A stretch of DNA of 64,000 nt. It comes from Escherichia coli. Lineage in GTDB: Bacteria > Pseudomonadota > Gammaproteobacteria > Enterobacterales > Enterobacteriaceae. Shown here in pieces: positions 11,345-48,550 of this stretch. Each line of letters starts with the position of its first letter. Position 1 is the stretch's first letter. The notes below the pieces were generated by a model. The model was given only the letters and a program-made list of their open reading frames with translations. It made no database searches and was not told the origin of the DNA. The stretch is taken from NCBI RefSeq assembly GCF_003018115.1, contig NZ_CP027457.1; one strand, 5' to 3'. The position numbers were made by a program, and so were the translations under genes.

Positions 11345-11502
11345 GTTTCACTCCTGCTTTGGCTAGTCTGTAAACACCAACAAGGCGCTCTGCGAACGCC
11401 CTGTTATTTGCTGCGGCTACCACTAATCCCTCAGGTGAATCAGGGTGTCGAATCTCTTCTTTTTCCTGGTATTTCTTACGACGTTTTGTCATAATTACTC
11501 CT

Positions 11503-11566
11503 GTGGATTGATCCAGTCTTTCTACATCAGGCCTCGAAGAATTCGCCGTTCTTCGGGGCTTTTTCT
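11503..11566 (+). ncRNA. oop: Putative OOP-like antisense RNA overlapping the 3' end of cII
   Basis: Plus-strand hairpin CGAAGAA-TTCGCCG-TTCTTCG followed by a T-run (11535-11566) inside the cII 3' end; upstream GTGGATTGATCCAGTC resembles the lambda oop 5' end. Confidence 0.45.
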
Positions 11567-11805
11567 TTTGTCAGCATTCTGGCTACTTTCTTAGCCAGTT
11601 CCGCCAACTCCTCGTCTTCAACACCCCATTCAAGAACAGCCAGAAGCATTCCCATTTTTGGGATGAAGCTGTCTTTCCATCGCGAAATTTGCGATTCATT
11701 AATTCCTAACGCGTCGGCAACCTTTCGCTGGCCACGTACAGCAATTCGATTCAGGATGTTGCTTGTAATTGCATTCGCTTTCTTGCGAGTACTTGTAAGT
11801 TCCAT
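11527..11805 (-). CDS. cII: CII-like transcriptional activator
   Basis: From internal ATG at 11805: MELTSTRKKANAITSNILNRIAVRGQRKVADALGINESQISRWKDSFIPKMGMLLAVLEWGV, lambda CII-like. Confidence 0.75.
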   Translation of the reverse strand: MELTSTRKKANAITSNILNRIAVRGQRKVADALGINESQISRWKDSFIPKMGMLLAVLEWGVEDEELAELAKKVARMLTKEKAPKNGEFFEA

Positions 11806-11864
11806 ATGTAAGTATTTCCTTAACAAATAAGAAGTTATGCGCATCAACTTATGCGCGTTGTATT

Positions 11865-11907
11865 CCCGCATTTCGGCGGGAATGAGGACCATGACTGTTA
11901 AAGAGCG
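11865..11907 (-). promoter_or_regulatory. nutR (boxA-like CGCTCTTTAACA plus boxB hairpin CCCGCCGAAATGCGGG)
   Basis: Downstream of cro on the minus strand; boxB is identical to the one at nutL. Confidence 0.6.
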
Positions 11908-11913
11908 GTGTTA

Positions 11914-12114
11914 CTATTTGTTTTTCTTGTTGCTTGGGAAAGGACGAACTTCCTCTCCAATCACACTGCCATCAGGCTTTACCGTAACCATGATGTTACG
12001 GCCTGCCAGAATGGCCTTGCTGATAGCGCACTGGATTACACCAAAGTCACTGGCTGCTTTAGCCTGTCCATGGATTTTGGCGTAATCGGCAAGTGTCATT
12101 CGAATCATATGCAC
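11914..12114 (-). CDS. cro: Cro-like repressor
   Basis: 66-aa [67 protein letters not shown], lambda Cro-like, divergent from cI. Confidence 0.8.
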
Positions 12115-12139
12115 TCTCCGTTATTAACCATGAACAAAG

Positions 12140-12179
12140 AATACTACAGGTATTCAAAGCAATCAATACTCAGGGTATT
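12140..12179. promoter_or_regulatory. oR operators: two 15-bp palindromes AATAC-N5-GTATT (12140-12154, 12165-12179) in the cI-cro intergenic region (pR/pRM)
   Basis: AATACTACAGGTATT and AATACTCAGGGTATT read directly from the sequence. Confidence 0.65.
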
Positions 12180-12214
12180 TTTAGTTTAAGTACCTTAGCT
12201 ATTAGAATTAAGCT

Positions 12215-12931
12215 ATGGAAAATAAAAAATCACTGACGACAGAACAGCTCGAAGACGCTAAGCGGCTTAAGGCTTTGTATGAGTCAAAAAAGAAAGAATT
12301 GGGAATAACCCAATACTCAATCGCTGATGAACTGGGTATCACCCAAGGAGCGGTAGGGCATTATCTTAATGGCAGAAACGCGCTAAACGTTGAGGTCGCA
12401 TCTGGTTTTGCACGTTTGTTGCAAGTCTCAATTGCTGATTTTAGCCAGTCAATTGCTGCCAAGGTTGCAGAACAGGCAGAAAGCCTTAAGAGCGATGCCA
12501 ACGTAAGGTATGCAGGGGAATACAGAGCAGGAAAGAGGTATCCGGTGTTAAGCAGTATCCAGGCTGGCTCGTGGTGTGAAGCATGCGAACCATACACCAT
12601 TAAAGACATAGATGTTTGGCTTGAGTCTGACGCGCATATTCAAGGTAATGCGTTCTGGCTTAAAGTGGAAGGTGATTCAATGACGGCACCGGTTGGGTTA
12701 AGCATTCCAGAGGGAACATTCGTTCTTTTCGATACCGGAAGGGAGGCGATCAACGGCAGCTTGGTCATAGCAAAACTTTCTGACTCTAACGAAGCAACAT
12801 TCAAGAAGCTGATAATCGACGGCGGAAATAAATACCTCAAGGGACTTAATCCTGCATGGCCTCTCGTGCCAATCAATGGAAACTGCAAGATTATAGGCGT
12901 TGCAATTGAGACAAAACTAAGGCTGGTTTGA
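12215..12931 (+). CDS. cI: CI-type prophage repressor (HTH plus LexA/S24-like C-terminal domain)
   Basis: 238-aa ORF; N-terminus MENKKSLTTEQLEDAKRLKALYESKKKELGITQYSIADELGITQGAVG parallels lambda CI; C-terminus AFWLKVEGDSMTAP...FKKLI is the autocleavage domain. Confidence 0.85.
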   Translation: MENKKSLTTEQLEDAKRLKALYESKKKELGITQYSIADELGITQGAVGHYLNGRNALNVEVASGFARLLQVSIADFSQSIAAKVAEQAESLKSDANVRYAGEYRAGKRYPVLSSIQAGSWCEACEPYTIKDIDVWLESDAHIQGNAFWLKVEGDSMTAPVGLSIPEGTFVLFDTGREAINGSLVIAKLSDSNEATFKKLIIDGGNKYLKGLNPAWPLVPINGNCKIIGVAIETKLRLV

Positions 12932-13317
12932 TCACGCAAGGGGCGATTATGGTTGGAACCGCTATAGCAAGCTTTTTTGGGATGTTGGCAATCTCGACAA
13001 TTTACGGCTTAGCGCATGCTTTTATTGCGAAATCTCTATCAGAAAAAATAAGCCAGGCTTGGGCGCATAGATCAGCTCGTTTCATGATTCTGGTGATCAT
13101 AGCAATACAAGGGATATCTGCATTTATCCTCTATGGATCAAGCTTATACCTATTGTATCAAGGCGCGACATTTACGCCTTACACCAGTGATTACGGAACT
13201 CTATACGATGGTAGTGAAGACATCACTGTGGCTTGGATCGTCTTTGGTTTATCTATGGCCGTGTCTGTTGTAGCAGACATCATTAAGGTAATTCTCGTCT
13301 TAACCTTCGCTGACTAA
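12928..13317 (+). CDS. Integral membrane protein (about 4 TM helices) co-transcribed with cI, at the rex position
   Basis: 129-aa hydrophobic ORF whose ATG overlaps the cI stop (ATGA); lower GC than surroundings. Confidence 0.6.
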   Translation: MITQGAIMVGTAIASFFGMLAISTIYGLAHAFIAKSLSEKISQAWAHRSARFMILVIIAIQGISAFILYGSSLYLLYQGATFTPYTSDYGTLYDGSEDITVAWIVFGLSMAVSVVADIIKVILVLTFAD

Positions 13318-13403
13318 CCTATAATCCCGGCAGCAATAGCTATCGGGATCCACTTCACATATCCCGCATAAAAAGCACTGAACAAGCAGACACCGAAAAA
13401 ATA

Positions 13404-13488
13404 AATATCCTTTGTATTCATTTGCTTATCATTATTTCACCAAAAATAAATACCTTGGGTATTTACACAATAAAATACCTACAGTATT
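13404..13488. promoter_or_regulatory. oL operators: AATAC-N5-GTATT palindromes at 13449-13463 and 13474-13488, plus a degenerate AATAT-N5-GTATT at 13404-13418 (pL region)
   Basis: AATACCTTGGGTATT, AATACCTACAGTATT and AATATCCTTTGTATT read directly; same half-sites as oR. Confidence 0.6.
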
Positions 13489-13536
13489 CTTTAGCCATCA
13501 GCAGGACGCTGGAAGCCAAACGGAACAGATTGGCAG

Positions 13537-13576
13537 GCTCTTTAACATTGATGGGATTGTCCCGCCGAAATGCGGG
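13537..13576 (+). promoter_or_regulatory. nutL (boxA-like GCTCTTTAACA plus boxB CCCGCCGAAATGCGGG)
   Basis: Same boxB hairpin as at nutR, in the pL leader upstream of N. Confidence 0.6.
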
Positions 13577-13684
13577 AACCAAAGAGTAGTTGGCTTTGGG
13601 GTGACGTGAAGTGCAGCTGCACGACGGCAACCGGAAGATAAGCACCCGGCGCGTCACCGCCAAAGTCAATCATCGGAGGTCAAC

Positions 13685-13990
13685 ATGACAGTAGTCATTA
13701 CATATCTGGCTGACGATAACGCCAGAAATCGCCGCAGAGCACGCAGACAGGCTCAACGTGAACAGGCAATGCAAGAGCAGCGACTGGCGCGAAAAATTGC
13801 GCTAAAGCTCTCTGGTTGCGTCAGGGCAGACAAAGCAGCATCACTCGGAAGCCTTCGCTGCCAGAAGGCAGAAGAAGTCGAGCGTAAACAGAACCGTATT
13901 TACTACCGCAAGCCACGCAGTGAAATGGGTGTGACATGCTCAGGCCGCCAGAAGCAACGCGGAAAATCAATTCCAGCTTATTACGATTGA
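13685..13990 (+). CDS. N: N-type antitermination protein (arginine-rich motif)
   Basis: 101-aa ORF with N-terminal ARM (NARNRRRARRQAQREQ); first gene after nutL; central region resembles phage-21-type N as recalled. Confidence 0.6.
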   Translation: MTVVITYLADDNARNRRRARRQAQREQAMQEQRLARKIALKLSGCVRADKAASLGSLRCQKAEEVERKQNRIYYRKPRSEMGVTCSGRQKQRGKSIPAYYD

Positions 13991-20247: not shown

Positions 20248-20559
20248 ATGGAGATGATTATGGCCTATTCAACATTCAACCCTTTAACGTTACAGAAATA
20301 CCAGACAGACCCTGAAGATTTATGCTCACTGTGTGGCGGAAATCATGGTAAAGCAGCCATGATCGAATGTAAGGACAAAATCCACATTTGCCTTAATTGC
20401 GTTGATGTCCTCGTTGATATCAAAAATGAAAGAGAAGATAAAAAGCGTAGCGAGGCTATTCGCGCCTTAGATTCATGGATGCGAGATGGGTATAGTGCTG
20501 CGCAAATTTATGACTTAGCCATTTCAAAAGGCGAAATACCAGGTGTGCGAATCGAATAA
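20248..20559 (+). CDS. Small Cys-rich protein (CxxC...CxxC; about 99-103 aa)
   Basis: Motifs CSLCGG and CLNCVD. Confidence 0.5.
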   Translation: MEMIMAYSTFNPLTLQKYQTDPEDLCSLCGGNHGKAAMIECKDKIHICLNCVDVLVDIKNEREDKKRSEAIRALDSWMRDGYSAAQIYDLAISKGEIPGVRIE

Positions 20560-20594
20560 GAAGCGCACTCAAGCATCTTTTGGAGAAATCACAA

Positions 20595-20762
20595 ATGCAC
20601 TTCCGAGTCACAGGTGAATGGAATGGAGAGCCATTCAACAGAGTTATCGAAGCAGAGAACATCAATGACTGCTATGACCACTGGATGATATGGGCGCAGA
20701 TAGCACATGCAGAAGTAACCAATATTCGAATTGAAGAACTGAAAGAACACCAAGCCGCCTGA
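20595..20762 (+). CDS. Hypothetical protein (55 aa)
   Basis: ORF MHFRVTGEWNGEPF... ending in an intrinsic terminator. Confidence 0.4.
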   Translation: MHFRVTGEWNGEPFNRVIEAENINDCYDHWMIWAQIAHAEVTNIRIEELKEHQAA

Positions 20763-20776
20763 TGGCGGTTTTTTCT
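20753..20776 (+). terminator. Intrinsic terminator upstream of xis
   Basis: GCCGCC-TGAT-GGCGG hairpin followed by TTTTTTCTT. Confidence 0.65.
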
Positions 20777-20801
20777 TGCGTGTAATTGCGGAGACTTTGC
20801 G

Positions 20802-21020
20802 ATGTACTTGACACTTCAGGAGTGGAACGCACGCCAGCGACGCCCAAGAAGCCTTGAAACAGTTCGTCGATGGGTGCGCGAATGCAGGATATTCCCACCA
20901 CCGGTTAAGGATGGAAGAGAGTATCTGTTCCACGAATCAGCGGTAAAGGTTGACTTAAATCGACCAGTAACAGGTAGCCTTTTGAAGAGGATCAGAAATG
21001 GGAAGAAGGCGAAGTCATGA
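20802..21020 (+). CDS. xis: Excisionase (lambda Xis-type)
   Basis: 72-aa ORF MYLTLQEWNARQRRPRSLETVRRWVRECRIFPPPVKDGREYLFHESAVKV..., recognised as lambda Xis; overlaps int start. Confidence 0.85.
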   Translation: MYLTLQEWNARQRRPRSLETVRRWVRECRIFPPPVKDGREYLFHESAVKVDLNRPVTGSLLKRIRNGKKAKS

Positions 21021-22068
21021 GCGCCGGGATTTACCCCCTAACCTTTATATAAGAAACAATGGATATTACTGCTACAGGGACCCAAGGACGGGTAAAGAGT
21101 TCGGATTAGGCAGAGACAGGAGGATAGCAATCACTGAAGCTATACAGGCCAACATTGAGTTATTTTCAGGACACAAACACAAGCCTCTGACAGCGAGAAT
21201 CAACAGTGATAATTCTGTTACGTTACATTCATGGCTTGATCGCTACGAAAAAATCCTCGCCAGCAGAGGAATCAAGCAGAAGACACTCATAAATTACATG
21301 AGCAAAATTAAAGCAATAAGGAGGGGGCTGCCTGATGTTCCACTTGAAGACATCACCACAAAAGAAATTGCGGCAATGCTCAATGGATACATAGACGAGG
21401 GCAAGGCGGCATCAGCCAAGTTAATCAGATCAACACTGAGCGATGCATTCCGAGAGGCTATAGCTGAAGGCCATATAACAACAAACCCGGTCGCTGCTAC
21501 TCGCGCAGCAAAATCAGAGGTAAGGAGATCAAGGCTTACGGCTGACGAATACCTGAAAATTTATCAAGCAGCAGAATCATCACCATGTTGGTTAAGACTT
21601 GCAATGGAACTGGCTGTTGTTACCGGACAGCGAGTTGGTGATTTATGCGAAATGAAGTGGTCTGATATCGTAGATGGATATCTTTATGTCGAGCAAAGCA
21701 AAACAGGCGTAAAAATTGCCATCCCAACAGCATTGCATGTTGATGCTCTCGGAATATCAATGAAGGAAACACTTGATAAATGCAAAGAGATTCTTGGCGG
21801 AGAAACCATAATTGCATCTACTCGTCGTGAACCGCTTTCATCCGGCACAGTATCAAGGTATTTTATGCGCGCACGAAAAGCATCAGGTCTTTCCTTCGAA
21901 GGGGATCCGCCTACCTTTCACGAGTTGCGCAGTTTGTCTGCAAGACTCTATGAGAAGCAGATAAGCGATAAGTTTGCTCAACATCTTCTCGGGCATAAGT
22001 CGGACACCATGGCATCACAGTATCGTGATGACAGAGGCAGGGAGTGGGACAAAATTGAAATCAAATAA
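20998..22068 (+). CDS. int: Tyrosine integrase (lambda Int-type, 356 aa)
   Basis: 356-aa ORF MGRRRSHERRDLPPNLYIRNNGYYCYRDPRTGKEFGLGRDRR..., recognised as lambda Int; transcribed toward the att junction. Confidence 0.9.
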   Translation: MGRRRSHERRDLPPNLYIRNNGYYCYRDPRTGKEFGLGRDRRIAITEAIQANIELFSGHKHKPLTARINSDNSVTLHSWLDRYEKILASRGIKQKTLINYMSKIKAIRRGLPDVPLEDITTKEIAAMLNGYIDEGKAASAKLIRSTLSDAFREAIAEGHITTNPVAATRAAKSEVRRSRLTADEYLKIYQAAESSPCWLRLAMELAVVTGQRVGDLCEMKWSDIVDGYLYVEQSKTGVKIAIPTALHVDALGISMKETLDKCKEILGGETIIASTRREPLSSGTVSRYFMRARKASGLSFEGDPPTFHELRSLSARLYEKQISDKFAQHLLGHKSDTMASQYRDDRGREWDKIEIK

Positions 22069-22141
22069 TGATTTTATTTTGACTGATAGTGACCTGTTCG
22101 TTGCAACAAATTGATAAGCAATGCTTTTTTATAATGCCAAC

Positions 22142-22156
22142 TTAGTATAAAAAAGC
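22142..22156. other. attL core (lambda 15-bp common core, complement of GCTTTTTTATACTAA) at the prophage-host junction
   Basis: TTAGTATAAAAAAGC preceded by lambda P'-arm-like sequence and followed by host AGGCTTCA. Confidence 0.8.
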
Positions 22157-22202
22157 AGGCTTCAACGGATTCATTTTTCTATTTCATAGCCCGGAGCAAC
22201 CT

Positions 22203-23486
22203 GTGAACACATTTTCAGTTTCCCGTCTGGCGCTGGCATTGGCTTTTGGCGTGACGCTGACCGCCTGTAGCTCAACACCACCCGATCAACGTCCTTCTGA
22301 TCAAACTGCGCCTGGTACCTCTTCTCGCCCGATTCTGTCGGCAAAAGAAGCGCAGAATTTCGATGCTCAACACTATTATGCATCCCTGACACCAGGTGCT
22401 GCAGCGTGGAATCCGTCCCCGATAACCCTGCCTGCGCAACCTGACTTTGTTGTCGGCCCGGCGGGTACTCAAGGTGTAACGCATACCACGATTCAGGCGG
22501 CGGTAGATGCGGCAATTATCAAGCGCACCAACAAGCGCCAGTATATTGCCGTGATGCCTGGTGAGTATCAGGGAACGGTGTATGTCCCTGCTGCTCCAGG
22601 TGGAATTACTCTGTACGGTACAGGTGAAAAACCGATTGATGTGAAGATTGGGCTTTCCCTTGATGGGGGCATGAGCCCTGCCGACTGGCGTCACGACGTC
22701 AACCCGCGCGGCAAATATATGCCAGGTAAACCAGCGTGGTATATGTACGATAGCTGCCAGCGCAAACGCAGCGACAGTATCGGTGTTCTGTGTTCTGCGG
22801 TCTTCTGGTCACAAAACAATGGCCTGCAACTGCAAAATCTGACCATCGAAAACACGCTGGGCGATAGCGTAGATGCAGGTAACCATCCGGCGGTGGCACT
22901 GCGTACTGACGGTGACCAGGTACAGATTAACAACGTTAACATTCTCGGTCGTCAGAACACCTTCTTTGTCACCAACAGCGGTGTGCAGAACCGTCTGGAA
23001 ACGAATCGTCAGCCGCGTACGCTGGTGACCAACAGCTACATTGAAGGGGATGTGGATATCGTTTCTGGTCGCGGCGCAGTGGTGTTCGATAACACCGAAT
23101 TCCGCGTGGTGAACTCACGTACTCAGCAAGAAGCGTATGTGTTTGCACCGGCTACGCTGTCCAACATCTATTACGGTTTCCTCGCCGTAAACAGCCGTTT
23201 CAATGCTTCCGGTGATGGCGTGGCGCAACTGGGCCGCTCGCTGGATGTTGATGCCAATACCAACGGTCAGGTGGTGATCCGTGATAGCGCCATCAACGAA
23301 GGTTTTAACACGGTTAAACCGTGGGGCGATGCGGTGATCTCTAATCGTCCGTTTGCGGGTAATACCGGCAGCGTTGACGATAGCGACGAAATACAGCGCA
23401 ATCTGAATGACACTAACTACAACCGCATGTGGGAATACAATAACCGCGGCGTGGGTAGCAAAGTGGTTGCAGAGGCGAAGAAGTAA
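22203..23486 (+). CDS. ybhC: Pectinesterase-like outer-membrane lipoprotein YbhC
   Basis: 427-aa ORF with lipoprotein signal (LTACSS); position adjacent to attB-lambda. Confidence 0.9.
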   Translation: MNTFSVSRLALALAFGVTLTACSSTPPDQRPSDQTAPGTSSRPILSAKEAQNFDAQHYYASLTPGAAAWNPSPITLPAQPDFVVGPAGTQGVTHTTIQAAVDAAIIKRTNKRQYIAVMPGEYQGTVYVPAAPGGITLYGTGEKPIDVKIGLSLDGGMSPADWRHDVNPRGKYMPGKPAWYMYDSCQRKRSDSIGVLCSAVFWSQNNGLQLQNLTIENTLGDSVDAGNHPAVALRTDGDQVQINNVNILGRQNTFFVTNSGVQNRLETNRQPRTLVTNSYIEGDVDIVSGRGAVVFDNTEFRVVNSRTQQEAYVFAPATLSNIYYGFLAVNSRFNASGDGVAQLGRSLDVDANTNGQVVIRDSAINEGFNTVKPWGDAVISNRPFAGNTGSVDDSDEIQRNLNDTNYNRMWEYNNRGVGSKVVAEAKK

Positions 23487-23501
23487 GAGCTATTAACTAT
23501 T

Positions 23502-23612
<111 letters not shown>

Positions 23613-23626
23613 TCACATGGCGCTTT

Positions 23627-25888
23627 TTACATCTGACGGTTTTTATTGAAGTTAATCAAACTACCCGCCTTGATAATCTCGCGCTCTTCAGCAGTCAGAC
23701 TTTCCATATAGAGCGTAATTTCCGTTACCGGCGCATCTTCATGGATCACATAACCTTTAAACGTCGTACCCGGATTATCCAGCGCCGCTTTAATGCCAGG
23801 GATGTAAATGTAATCCCCCACTTCAAAGGTTGGCACTTCCGCCATTTGCAGCGGTAACATCCCCCAGTTGATGACGTTAGAACGATAGCGTTTAGTCGCG
23901 TACTCCTCGGCAATATTCGCCAGACCGCCAATCACACGCTGGCAGCTCGCCGCCTGTTCACGCGCAGAACCATCGCCTGGTTTCACCGCATAGACCATGC
24001 TGCCAATTTCAGTTTGCAGCGGATCAATATGCTCCTGACCAGCAATCTGCTTAATGCGCGCAAACACCTCTGTCAGCTCGCTGACATTCCCCGCCAGACG
24101 CTGATTTTCCAGCTCAGCAGTCGCTTTACTTCTGCCAACATAACCGGGATCGCGGCGAGACAGGGTAAACTCCGCCAGACCAATCGGATTTGAACGATAA
24201 GAAGAGGTTTCACCGGAAGGGATCAGTTCGTCGGTGGTGGTCACTTCGTCGAGGATCTTCGAGCACACTTTGAGGACGATATTGTCAGTCAGCGCACCTA
24301 ATTCCGGCCAGTCTTTAATGTTCGGTCCGTAAATCAGCGGTTGCTGAGTTGCCCCTTTCACAAAGCCCTGATAAACACGGTTTTTATACGGCGTTACATC
24401 GAAGGCGTACTCCGGCACGTTGTCCCAGCAATCGAGTTCGCTGGCAGAAGTTAAATAGCCACCGTTTCCCGCAGTCGCAGCGATAGAACGAGCGTCCATC
24501 AACGCCACCGCTGACATCTGCCCATTAGCTGGCTTAGAGCCTTCGCGGTTCGGGAAGTTACGCGTGGTGTGGCGAATACTTAAACCGTTGTTGATTGGCG
24601 TATCGCCCGCGCCAAAGCATGGGCCGCAGAACGCGGTTCTGATGATTGCGCCTGCGCCAATCAAATCTGCTACCACACCTTTTTTGGCGAGATCCATAAA
24701 CACCGGCTGTGATGACGGGTAAACCGCCAGCGAGAAGGTGTCATTGCCACAGGATTGACCGCGCAGTGCATTCGCCGCCGCGATGACGTTTTCGTAGTTA
24801 CCGCCAGAACAGCCCGCGATAATCCCCTGCTGCACTTTCAGGCGACCATTTTCCACTTTATCCAGCAGCGAGAGTTTGGCTTTACCGTGCGCCACGCGCT
24901 CGGACTCAATTTCAATCTCACGTAGAATGTCGGTCAGGTTCTGGTTCAGCGTGTCGATTTCATACACGTTGCTCGGGTGGAACGGCAGCGCAATCATTGG
25001 TTTGATGGCGCTTAAATCAACGCTGATGCAGCCATCGTAGTACGCCATCGGTTGAGGGTTAAGCTGGCAGTAATCCTGGCCGCGACCGTGCAGCGCCAGC
25101 CAGTTATGCACTTCTTCATCGGTTTGCCAGACAGAACTTAAACAGGTCGTTTCAGTGGTCATAACGTCAACACTGTTACGGAAATCGGTAGAGAGCGCAG
25201 CAATACCGGGACCTACGAATTCCATCACTTTGTTTTTGACGTAGCCGTTTTTGAACACGGCACCGATGATAGCCAGCGCCACATCCTGCGGCCCCACATA
25301 CGGCGCTGGTTTTCCGGTCAGATGCACCGCAACAACTCCCGGATAGTCGATATCCCAGGTGTCATTAAGCAATTGTTTTACCAACTCGCCGCCGCCCTCA
25401 CCGACTGCCATTGTCCCTAATGCACCGTAACGGGTGTGACTGTCTGACCCGAGGATCATTTTGCCGCCACCTGCCATCATCTCACGCATATATTGATGGA
25501 TGACCGCAATATGCGGAGGCACAAAAATACCGCCATAACGCTGAGCCGCCGATAAACCAAAAACATGGTCATCACCGTTAATGGTGCCGCCGACGGCGCA
25601 AAGTGAGTTATGGCAGTTGGTCAGCACATACGGCAGCGGGAAACGTTCCATACCGGACGCTTTAGCGGTCTGTACTATACCAACAAAGGTAATATCGTGA
25701 GAGGCTAATGAATCAAACTTAATTTTAAGTTTATCCATATTTCCGGACGTATTATGAGAAGAGAGAATAGACCAGGCAATAGTGCCTTTTTTGGCTTCTT
25801 CTTTTTTAATTTCGCCGGTGAAATGTTCTTCGGCAATTATTTCGTTATTACTGGCGAGAAACACGCCTTTTTCAGATAACTTGATCAT
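23627..25888 (-). CDS. ybhJ: Aconitase-family protein YbhJ
   Basis: ORF of about 753 aa (start MIKLSEKG) with aconitase-type Cys ligand motifs. Confidence 0.85.
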
Positions 25889-47748: not shown

Positions 47749-47824
47749 TGGTGGGTCGTGCAGGATTCGAACCTGCGACCAATTGATTAAAAGTCAACTG
47801 CTCTACCAACTGAGCTAACGACCC
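47749..47824 (-). tRNA. lysQ: tRNA-Lys (UUU)
   Basis: 76-nt sequence (minus strand GGGTCGTTAGCTCAGTTGGTAGAGCAGTTGACTTTTAATCAATTGGTCGCAGGTTCGAATCCTGCACGACCCACCA). Confidence 0.9.
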
Positions 47825-47857
47825 CTTGCGGGATTATGATGCTTTAATCATTCAGGA

Positions 47858-47933
47858 TGGTGGGTCGTGCAGGATTCGAACCTGCGACCAATTGATTAAA
47901 AGTCAACTGCTCTACCAACTGAGCTAACGACCC
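47858..47933 (-). tRNA. lysZ: tRNA-Lys (UUU)
   Basis: Identical 76-nt tRNA-Lys sequence. Confidence 0.9.
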
Positions 47934-48079
47934 ATACGGGTGTTACCTGAAAGATTTTTACTCGGGGCCAATCTTTAAGATTGGTGGGTCGTGCAGGATG
48001 ACTCGCTTCGCTCGCCCTTCGGGCCGTTGCTGGCGCAACGTTATCCTTCACGCTTAACATCTGAGTTTGATGTTAAAAC

Positions 48080-48155
48080 TGGTGGGTCGTGCAGGATTCG
48101 AACCTGCGACCAATTGATTAAAAGTCAACTGCTCTACCAACTGAGCTAACGACCC
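48080..48155 (-). tRNA. lysY: tRNA-Lys (UUU)
   Basis: Identical 76-nt tRNA-Lys sequence. Confidence 0.9.
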
Positions 48156-48158
48156 GAG

Positions 48159-48234
48159 TGGTGGGTGATGACGGGATCGAACCGCCGACCCCCTCCTTGT
48201 AAGGGAGGTGCTCTCCCAGCTGAGCTAATCACCC
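48159..48234 (-). tRNA. valZ: tRNA-Val (UAC)
   Basis: 76-nt sequence (minus strand GGGTGATTAGCTCAGCTGGGAGAGCACCTCCCTTACAAGGAGGGGGTCGGCGGTTCGATCCCGTCATCACCCACCA). Confidence 0.9.
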
Positions 48235-48285
48235 GATACTGCGCTGGATACTACAAACTACTTCCACCGAACCCACCGTAATTAG

Positions 48286-48361
48286 TGGTGGGTCGTGCAG
48301 GATTCGAACCTGCGACCAATTGATTAAAAGTCAACTGCTCTACCAACTGAGCTAACGACCC
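48286..48361 (-). tRNA. lysW: tRNA-Lys (UUU)
   Basis: Identical 76-nt tRNA-Lys sequence. Confidence 0.9.
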
Positions 48362-48363
48362 GG

Positions 48364-48439
48364 TGGTGGGTGATGACGGGATCGAACCGCCGACCCCCTC
48401 CTTGTAAGGGAGGTGCTCTCCCAGCTGAGCTAATCACCC
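48364..48439 (-). tRNA. valT: tRNA-Val (UAC)
   Basis: Identical 76-nt tRNA-Val sequence. Confidence 0.9.
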
Positions 48440-48474
48440 GATACTACGCTGGATACTACAACTAACTAGGTTAG

Positions 48475-48550
48475 TGGTGGGTCGTGCAGGATTCGAACCT
48501 GCGACCAATTGATTAAAAGTCAACTGCTCTACCAACTGAGCTAACGACCC
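48475..48550 (-). tRNA. lysT: tRNA-Lys (UUU), first gene of the operon
   Basis: Identical 76-nt tRNA-Lys sequence. Confidence 0.9.

Follow-up and report, generated by a model that had tools for sequence, protein, structure and literature searches.

AATAC-N5-GTATT palindromes as probable operators of a lambda-type lysis-lysogeny switch in an HK620-like prophage of Escherichia coli

The AATAC-N5-GTATT palindromes of an HK620-like prophage located beside ybhC are very probably the operators of a lambda-type lysis-lysogeny switch. The prophage is carried by the window, which is the whole 64,000-nucleotide stretch of Escherichia coli DNA that was analysed here. Both the operators and the switch are already known, being those of the HK620/mEpX2 immunity module that has been annotated since 2001. 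The region displays the features by which such a switch is recognized, namely divergent regulatory genes with a control gap between them, a repressor that combines a helix-turn-helix (HTH) with an S24 domain and has the Ala-Gly site and the Ser/Lys dyad, three oR operators placed over pR and pRM, and matching oL operators placed over pL upstream of N (Table 1).

Exact matches to AATAC-N5-GTATT occur four times in the window (12140-12154, 12165-12179, 13449-13463 and 13474-13488), and each of them lies either in the cro-cI gap or just 5' of N, with none elsewhere. The mean number of matches in 100 dinucleotide-preserving shuffles of the window was 0.06 and none of the 100 shuffles reached four. 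The site at 13404-13418 (AATATCCTTTGTATT) is the sole match with one mismatch in the window, 1.62 matches with at most one mismatch being expected per 64 kb, and when up to two mismatches are allowed the enrichment is gone (27 sites found versus 23 expected). The four exact sites supplied eight half-sites for a weight matrix. Scored over 63,984 positions, this matrix gave the exact sites themselves 21.7-24.5, and the runners-up at 13403-13419 (11.3, rank 5) and 12188-12204 (7.5, rank 7) were both found beside exact sites, such that ranks 1-5 and 7 all fall in oR or oL. The preliminary description, made from the sequence alone, had placed two palindromes between cI and cro and three in the pL region, one of them degenerate, and had proposed that the motif is confined to oR and oL; the exact search reproduces its coordinates and counts, and also the confinement. 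Its two oR palindromes stand, but the count is incomplete as the degenerate OR3 at 12188-12204 had been missed, while in the pL region both exact sites hold, and the site at 13404-13418 does have a single mismatch but is of uncertain status as a third operator.

Table 1. Features of the immunity region, in coordinates of the window
Feature	Position	Strand	Description	Basis
cII	11527-11805	-	lysogeny-establishment activator, downstream of cro	Pfam Phage_CII, 143 bits
nutR (putative)	11862-11907	-		carried over from HK620 record
cro	11914-12108	-	64 aa, recognition helix QCAISKAIL	Pfam Cro PF09048; lambda Cro 1cop
pR	12138-12166	-	-35 TTGATT (12166-12161), 17-nt spacer, -10 TATTCT (12143-12138)	read from sequence
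OR1	12139-12155		GAATACTACAGGTATTC; overlaps pR -10	exact motif; OR1 in HK620
OR2	12164-12180		CAATACTCAGGGTATTT; overlaps pR -35, abuts pRM -35	exact motif; OR2 in HK620
pRM (candidate)	12180-12208	+	weak -35 TTTAGT (12180-12185), 17-nt spacer, -10 TAGAAT (12203-12208)	read from sequence
OR3	12188-12204		AAGTACCTTAGCTATTA; degenerate (2 mismatches), overlaps pRM -10	matrix rank 7; OR3 in HK620
cI	12215-12931	+	238-aa repressor with HTH (N-terminal) and self-cleaving S24 (C-terminal) domains	Pfam; 3bdn match
hkaS-like ORF	12949-13317	+	between cI and oL, in place of lambda rexAB	hkaS in HK620
Third oL site (candidate, distal)	13403-13419		AAATATCCTTTGTATTC; 1 mismatch, 45 bp from OL2	matrix rank 5
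OL2	13448-13464		AAATACCTTGGGTATTT; overlaps pL -35	exact motif; OL2 in HK620
pL	13462-13490	+	TTTACA, 17-nt spacer, TATTCT	promoter scan; inside HK620 pL feature
OL1	13473-13489		AAATACCTACAGTATTC; overlaps pL -10	exact motif; OL1 in HK620
nutL (putative)	13536-13577	+		carried over from HK620 record
N-like antiterminator	13685-13990	+	first gene of pL operon	annotated N in HK620, mEpX2 (PV340544), phi296

The product of cI matches HTH_3 (39 bits) and Peptidase_S24 (84.6 bits) of Pfam and the full-length lambda repressor (PDB identifier 3bdn) with an E-value of 3e-52 over residues 3-232. Across an alignment with lambda and seven relatives, residues Ala117-Gly118, Ser155 and Lys197 do not vary, and the N-terminal domain, the DNA-binding one, is 53% identical to that of lambda. 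The divergent cro gene, separated from cI by a gap of 106 bp and preceded by the Shine-Dalgarno sequence GGAGAG 6 nt before its ATG at 12108 as read from the sequence, encodes a member of the lambda Cro family, with a score of 91.4 bits to PF09048 (gathering cutoff 32.7) and an E-value of 5e-19 to lambda Cro (1cop). Downstream of cro follow cII, O and a DnaB-like P. The hkaS-like ORF, for which a Pfam search gave no match, occupies the place where lambda has rexAB. The match of the N-like ORF to the Pfam N_peptide family is weak (18 bits, below the cutoff). This ORF is 101 codons long in the window, while the HK620 annotation gives it 90 and mEpX2 has 87, and its sequence past the common N-terminal part differs among the three.

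All three oR operators are positioned over promoter elements. The HK620 record has a pR feature that encloses the pR promoter of the window, whose -10 hexamer and spacing are identical to those of pL. While a simple promoter scan found pL, it did not call pR or pRM, and it returned fewer promoter-like sites over 11800-13750 than in shuffled sequence; pR and pRM were instead identified by visual comparison with lambda and the HK620 annotation. OR3 matches the motif weakly, with two mismatches, and among 28 unique relatives its right half GTATT is kept in 26-28 while its left half is degenerate. A TAGAAT, TACTAT, TAATAT or TACAAT hexamer is found at the place of the pRM -10 in most relatives. 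In lambda, as in the window, the pRM -10 overlaps the end of OR3 and sits 6 nt before the cI ATG, and the stretch from the end of OR3 through the pRM -10 to the start of cI aligns base for base between the two (lambda GATAGATTTAACGTATG, window TATTAGAATTAAGCTATG). Since the layout of pRM and the cI start aligns with that of lambda, the cI mRNA from the candidate pRM is probably leaderless by analogy.

The likeness to lambda extends to the gene order, to homologous cI and Cro, and to 17-bp operators with a central base pair, three of which are present at oR. The centre spacings OR1-OR2, OR2-OR3 and OR3-cI ATG are 25, 24 and 19 bp in the window and 24, 23 and 19 bp in lambda, and those of the 28 relatives are 24/25, 23/24 and 19/20 bp. 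The half-sites, in contrast, differ: N1 A2 A3 T4 A5 C6 Y7 in the window versus T1 A2 T3 C4 A5 C6 C7 in lambda, such that A2, A5 and C6 are common and positions 3-4 are AT instead of TC. Neither the lambda 17-mer consensus (up to two mismatches) nor an exact TATCACC was matched in oR or oL, and the window does not belong to the lambda immunity, whose operators are of the TATCACCGC half-site type. The phages 434 and P22 follow the same overall logic, with divergent repressor and cro genes and tripartite operators, but their operator patterns, ACAA-N6-TTGT and ATTTAAG-N4-CTTAAAT, are absent from oR and oL at up to one mismatch, and the Cro of the window belongs by Pfam to the fold family of lambda Cro and not to the all-helical 434/P22 type.

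The differences between the half-sites have counterparts in both proteins. The recognition helix of the window cI is QGAVGHYLNGRN and that of lambda cI is QSGVGALFNGIN; the equivalents of Gln44 and Asn55 of lambda are kept, whereas Ser45-Gly46 is changed to Gly-Ala and Ala49-Leu50-Phe51 to His-Tyr-Leu. In the structures of lambda repressor on its operator, A2 is read by Gln44 and base pair 4 by Ser45, and we infer by analogy that the changes in cI, with Gln44 kept and Ser45 altered, may fit the half-site pattern. The Cro helix is QCAISKAIL in the window versus QSAINKAIH in lambda, with Ser to Cys at H2 and Asn to Ser at H5. A recognition code for Cro was reportedly worked out by Hall et al. 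in 2005 and 2011. In this 'evolutionary code' Gln at H1 goes with A2, Ala at H3 with A5 and Lys at H6 with C6, and lambda Cro uses Ser at H2 to contact base pairs 4 and 5 (PMC6649833). Applied to the Cro of the window (QCAISK), the code predicts A2, A5 and C6, all three of which are observed.

Over 11500-13700, which spans cII-cro-cI-hkaS-oL-N, the window is 98.7-99.6% identical to phi296, mEpX2, HK620, HK630 and HZ41, and 97.7% identical to HK140. The cro-cI intergenic region containing oR is 100% identical to those of HK620 and mEpX2, and the oL region is about 99% identical to those of HK620-type phages, with all exact operator sites identical. The N-terminal 94 residues of cI are 100% identical to those of mEpX2 and HK140 and 98.9% identical to those of HK620. 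The GenBank record of HK620 (AF335538) annotates pR, OR1-3, pL, OL1-3, nutL, nutR and tIMM, and upon transferring its coordinates as window = locus + 2, its OR1, OR2, OL2 and OL1 are the four palindromes, each one base longer per side. This record of the immunity region is said to go back to Clark et al. 2001, J Mol Biol 311:657. With the same cI and Cro and the same operator sequences, the window belongs to the HK620/mEpX2 immunity type.

The module of the window differs from that of HK620 by a few substitutions and is carried in another genome background, beside ybhC and with late and early-right genes like those of HZ41. The prophage, which has an integrase and an excisionase, adjoins ybhC, and its rightward early and late genes resemble those of HZ41 and other HK620-like phages. 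At the prophage end, xis and int are next to ybhC and ybhJ (20500-24500), in the region of the lambda attachment site, and seven clustered tRNA genes (five Lys-UUU and two Val-UAC; 47749-48550) lie 25 kb further into the chromosome. Of 5,426 complete E. coli genomes, at least 145 carry the module. In one of the loci compared, on the E. coli H3 chromosome (L007; NZ_CP028732), the immunity region (query 12100-13520) is intact and 100% identical, and the neighbouring replication genes, O-like and DnaB-like, bear an annotation as truncated pseudogenes; the HK620-type switch here persists in a defective prophage.

Heteroimmunity of the prophage to lambda is supported by the properties of mEpX2. The latter is reported to constitute an immunity group separate from those of lambda, HK022 and phi80, and triple lysogens of lambda, HK022 and mEpX2 and of lambda, mEpX1 and mEpX2 have been built (PMC3442831); its separate immunity, together with the identical oR and the identical N-terminal domain of cI, supports the same for the prophage. 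No footprinting, gel-shift or reporter studies of binding by the HK620/mEpX2 repressor were found in the literature searched. The preliminary description had further held that cI is lambda-like in architecture but diverged in its DNA-recognition region, which agrees with a full-length homologue of 3bdn that has an altered recognition helix, and that the operators and the repressor form a heteroimmune pair. This pairing is supported by the co-variation of operator and repressor described below, by the lack of a lambda, 434 or P22 operator pattern and by the separate immunity group of mEpX2.

Variation among close relatives is marginally informative on the operators: among nine sequences that are at least 98.7% identical, none of the 11 variable non-coding positions falls in the 50 specified operator bases (p about 0.05). 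Hence, diverged relatives were compared. A set ascertained by protein, comprising 80 loci that were collected by homology to cI with peptide patterns that exclude the recognition helix, contains 31 combinations of helices. In the 130 bp upstream of cI, at least two copies of the motif (up to one mismatch) are present in 19 of 19 combinations in which cI has QG(A/G)VGHY(L/M)NGR and Cro has (I/H)Q(C/T)AIS(K/Q), versus one of the 12 other combinations (Fisher p 1.4e-7). The other combinations have different dyads at the same place, with palindromes that may also be described as TATAACC- or TAGTAC-type. For example, TATAACCGCTAGTTATT operators pair with a cI that has SQSAVAQIFAGKN and a Cro that has RQSAISK, and TAGTACT-N3-AGTACTA operators pair with a Cro that has TQIAISK. 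The matching group holds 28 unique oR sequences, and in all of them positions 2-6 and 12-16 of OR1 are invariant, whereas the five central bases and the flanks vary.

The relatives of the Fostie or TATAACC type (phage Fostie and IMG/VR loci L192, L197-L199, L204, L206, L207 and L209) have the same oR architecture as the window and a cI that is 62-69% identical overall. They differ in having TAGTACT-N3-AGTACTA or TATAACCGCTAGTTATT operators and a Cro with TQIAISK or RQSAISK, and some of their cI helices (QSAVGHY, SQSAVAQIF) differ from that of the window as well. Two of them, L192 and L206, have the QGAVGHY helix in cI and yet have sites of the TAGTAC/TACTAC type, and thus the recognition helix of cI (helix 3) does not by itself fix base 3. 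Phage Stx1a_10051 (L012) is a clean example of an immunity-module swap, as it shares the flanking cII and nutL-N with the window but has another cI and cro, and ATAACCTA-type palindromes at the place of OL1 and OL2. In L012 (approximately 2040-2346) the shared parts show 90% identity, and homology resumes around the pL -10 or the start.

When IMG/VR was scanned for pairs of motif copies separated by 8-12 bp, at least 120 loci were identified; being biased by the motif, this set was used for diversity only and for no statistics. Adjacent homologues of cI and cro are present in 88 of its loci, in 35 distinct protein combinations where cI and Cro are each 46-100% identical to those of the window. 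Three loci (L019, L041, L073) encode chimeric repressors with an N-terminal domain and helix of the HK620 type and a different S24-type C-terminal domain; their cI is 46-49% and their Cro 84-87% identical to that of the window, and their operators follow the N-terminal domain. Two different Cro helices, one of them VHQTAISKA(I/V)R (Cro 46-62% identical), occur with the same operators and the same cI helix (L013-L132, L133-L212). The double palindrome is also seen in stretches whose fetched DNA holds no cI/Cro homologue or one that is 29-35% identical (L036, L043, L077, L079 and L118, and about 20 with no cI match, for example L016, L022, L035, L037, L045 and L056). Some of these stretches are oL halves of split contigs, and others might encode unrelated repressors that use a similar motif.

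These comparisons also bear on whether the repeats are mainly duplicated promoter sequence, with the palindromes as a by-product of the -10/-35 design of pR and pL. The two promoters do share TATTCT as their -10 and a 17-nt spacer, the right halves of OR1 and OL1 contain this -10, and the two operators owe some of their likeness to common promoter sequence. A duplication of promoters, however, leaves the dyad symmetry unexplained. In the spacer or the -35, where OR2 and OL2 lie entirely and OR1 and OL1 with their left halves, the same 5-mer is nevertheless repeated in inverted form; the ten symmetric positions are the invariant ones in the 28 diverged relatives, where the central five vary; and the motif switches with the type of repressor and Cro while the promoter layout stays. 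We therefore regard an origin of the repeats from promoter duplication as highly improbable.

The identity of the third oL operator is less clear. The OL3 annotated in HK620 corresponds to 13426-13442 of the window (TTATCATTATTTCACCA), about 22 bp from OL2. Apart from carrying the 'OL3' label in AF335538, this segment has a lambda-like spacing, the third oL site of lambda being about 20 bp from OL2 in contrast to 45 bp for the distal candidate at 13403-13419, and in some relatives (L181, L187, L202 and L205) a third site lies roughly 21 bp away from OL2. However, it does not resemble the operator motif, as its matrix score of -35 (rank 40,838 of 63,984) is below the window mean, and it is variable among close relatives, holding two of their 11 variable non-coding positions, one of which is an indel. 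That this segment is the third operator is thus unlikely; the OL3 of the GenBank record of HK620 is probably misplaced, judging from its sequence, and its placement looks to have followed the spacing of lambda by analogy. The site at 13403-13419 is instead fifth in the matrix ranking and shows no variation among close relatives; diverged relatives of the subgroup with an IQCAISK Cro keep a conserved AATAC left half at -45 from OL2, other relatives having a third oL site at -21 or -30. It may equally be asked whether oL has any functional third operator, in which case 13404-13418 would be conserved for another role, for example as a terminator or an element ending the cI-hkaS transcript. The 'tIMM' of the HK620 record corresponds to 13399-13429, a spacing of 45 bp is unlike that of known OL3 sites, and the surrounding block AAAAAATAAAT...TTCAT is also kept where the copy of a relative has no AATAC half-site (for example, L166). 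On the other side, a site with at most one mismatch would occur by chance within approximately 100 bp of oL with a probability near 0.005, given 1.62 per 64 kb; several diverged relatives keep the AATAC left half at this offset with changed spacer bases; and a stem-loop terminator was looked for in the region of 13404-13418 and not detected. The absence of a functional third oL operator is in our view a possible but doubtful reading.

From its sequence, 13403-13419 is a plausible operator, and we consider it possible, at somewhat less than an even chance for the two proposals jointly, that this distal site and not the GenBank OL3 is the functional third oL operator of HK620-type phages and that the lambda-cI clade forms a natural series at half-site positions 3-4, namely TC, TA, AT and GT. 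If the former holds, the geometry of oL for any looping between OL3 and OR3 would differ from that of lambda. An unannotated ORF for a hydrophobic protein of 35 aa (MNTKDIYFFGVCLF...; 13314-13421, minus strand) starts inside the candidate site. Coding constraint from this ORF was considered and rejected as the cause of the conservation of 13403-13419, since in relatives the ORF is frameshifted or 3-40 codons long, whereas the DNA block is kept. The frameshifts come from changes in the length of A-runs, and the ORF is probably not a gene. The block AAAAAATAAAT...TTCAT (13394-13421; loci L162-L205) is conserved across diverged relatives regardless of reading frame.

Judging from the co-variation, the repressor and Cro are predicted to bind the operators and to repress pR and pL, and we envisage the following course for the switch, in which the occupancy of oR and oL by cI, its order and its cooperativity would be analogous to those in lambda. 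Dimers of cI and of Cro would each recognize 17-bp sites with the core AATAC-N5-GTATT, one subunit per half-site. By occupying OR1 and OR2, cI would mask the pR -10 and -35 and turn off cro and the rightward early genes, while the dimer on OR2, situated beside the weak pRM -35, would stimulate the synthesis of cI's own, probably leaderless, transcript. Binding of cI to OL1 and OL2 would cover pL and turn off N. The degenerate OR3 over the pRM -10 would allow Cro, or an excess of cI, to stop the synthesis of cI. Upon the SOS response, activated RecA would promote self-cleavage of cI at Ala117-Gly118 through the Ser155/Lys197 dyad, leading to induction of the prophage. Because half-site positions 3 and 4 differ, the repressor of lambda is not expected to bind the operators of the window, nor the repressor of the window those of lambda, which would make the two phages heteroimmune.

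As a discovery these operators carry little weight, since they have been public in the HK620 annotation since 2001 and follow the textbook design of lambda. What is added here is that the annotated OL3 probably needs correcting, together with a comparative display of how operator and repressor co-vary in the lambda-cI clade. Placing the prophage in the HK620/mEpX2 immunity group makes it possible to predict the superinfecting phages that it would exclude. Among lambda-cI relatives, operator positions 2, 5 and 6 are fixed and positions 3-4 switch with the recognition helices, and from the series TC, TA, AT and GT, if borne out, a specificity code for cI could be read like the one published for Cro. 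The comparative set may thus serve as a test bed for the engineering of repressor specificity.
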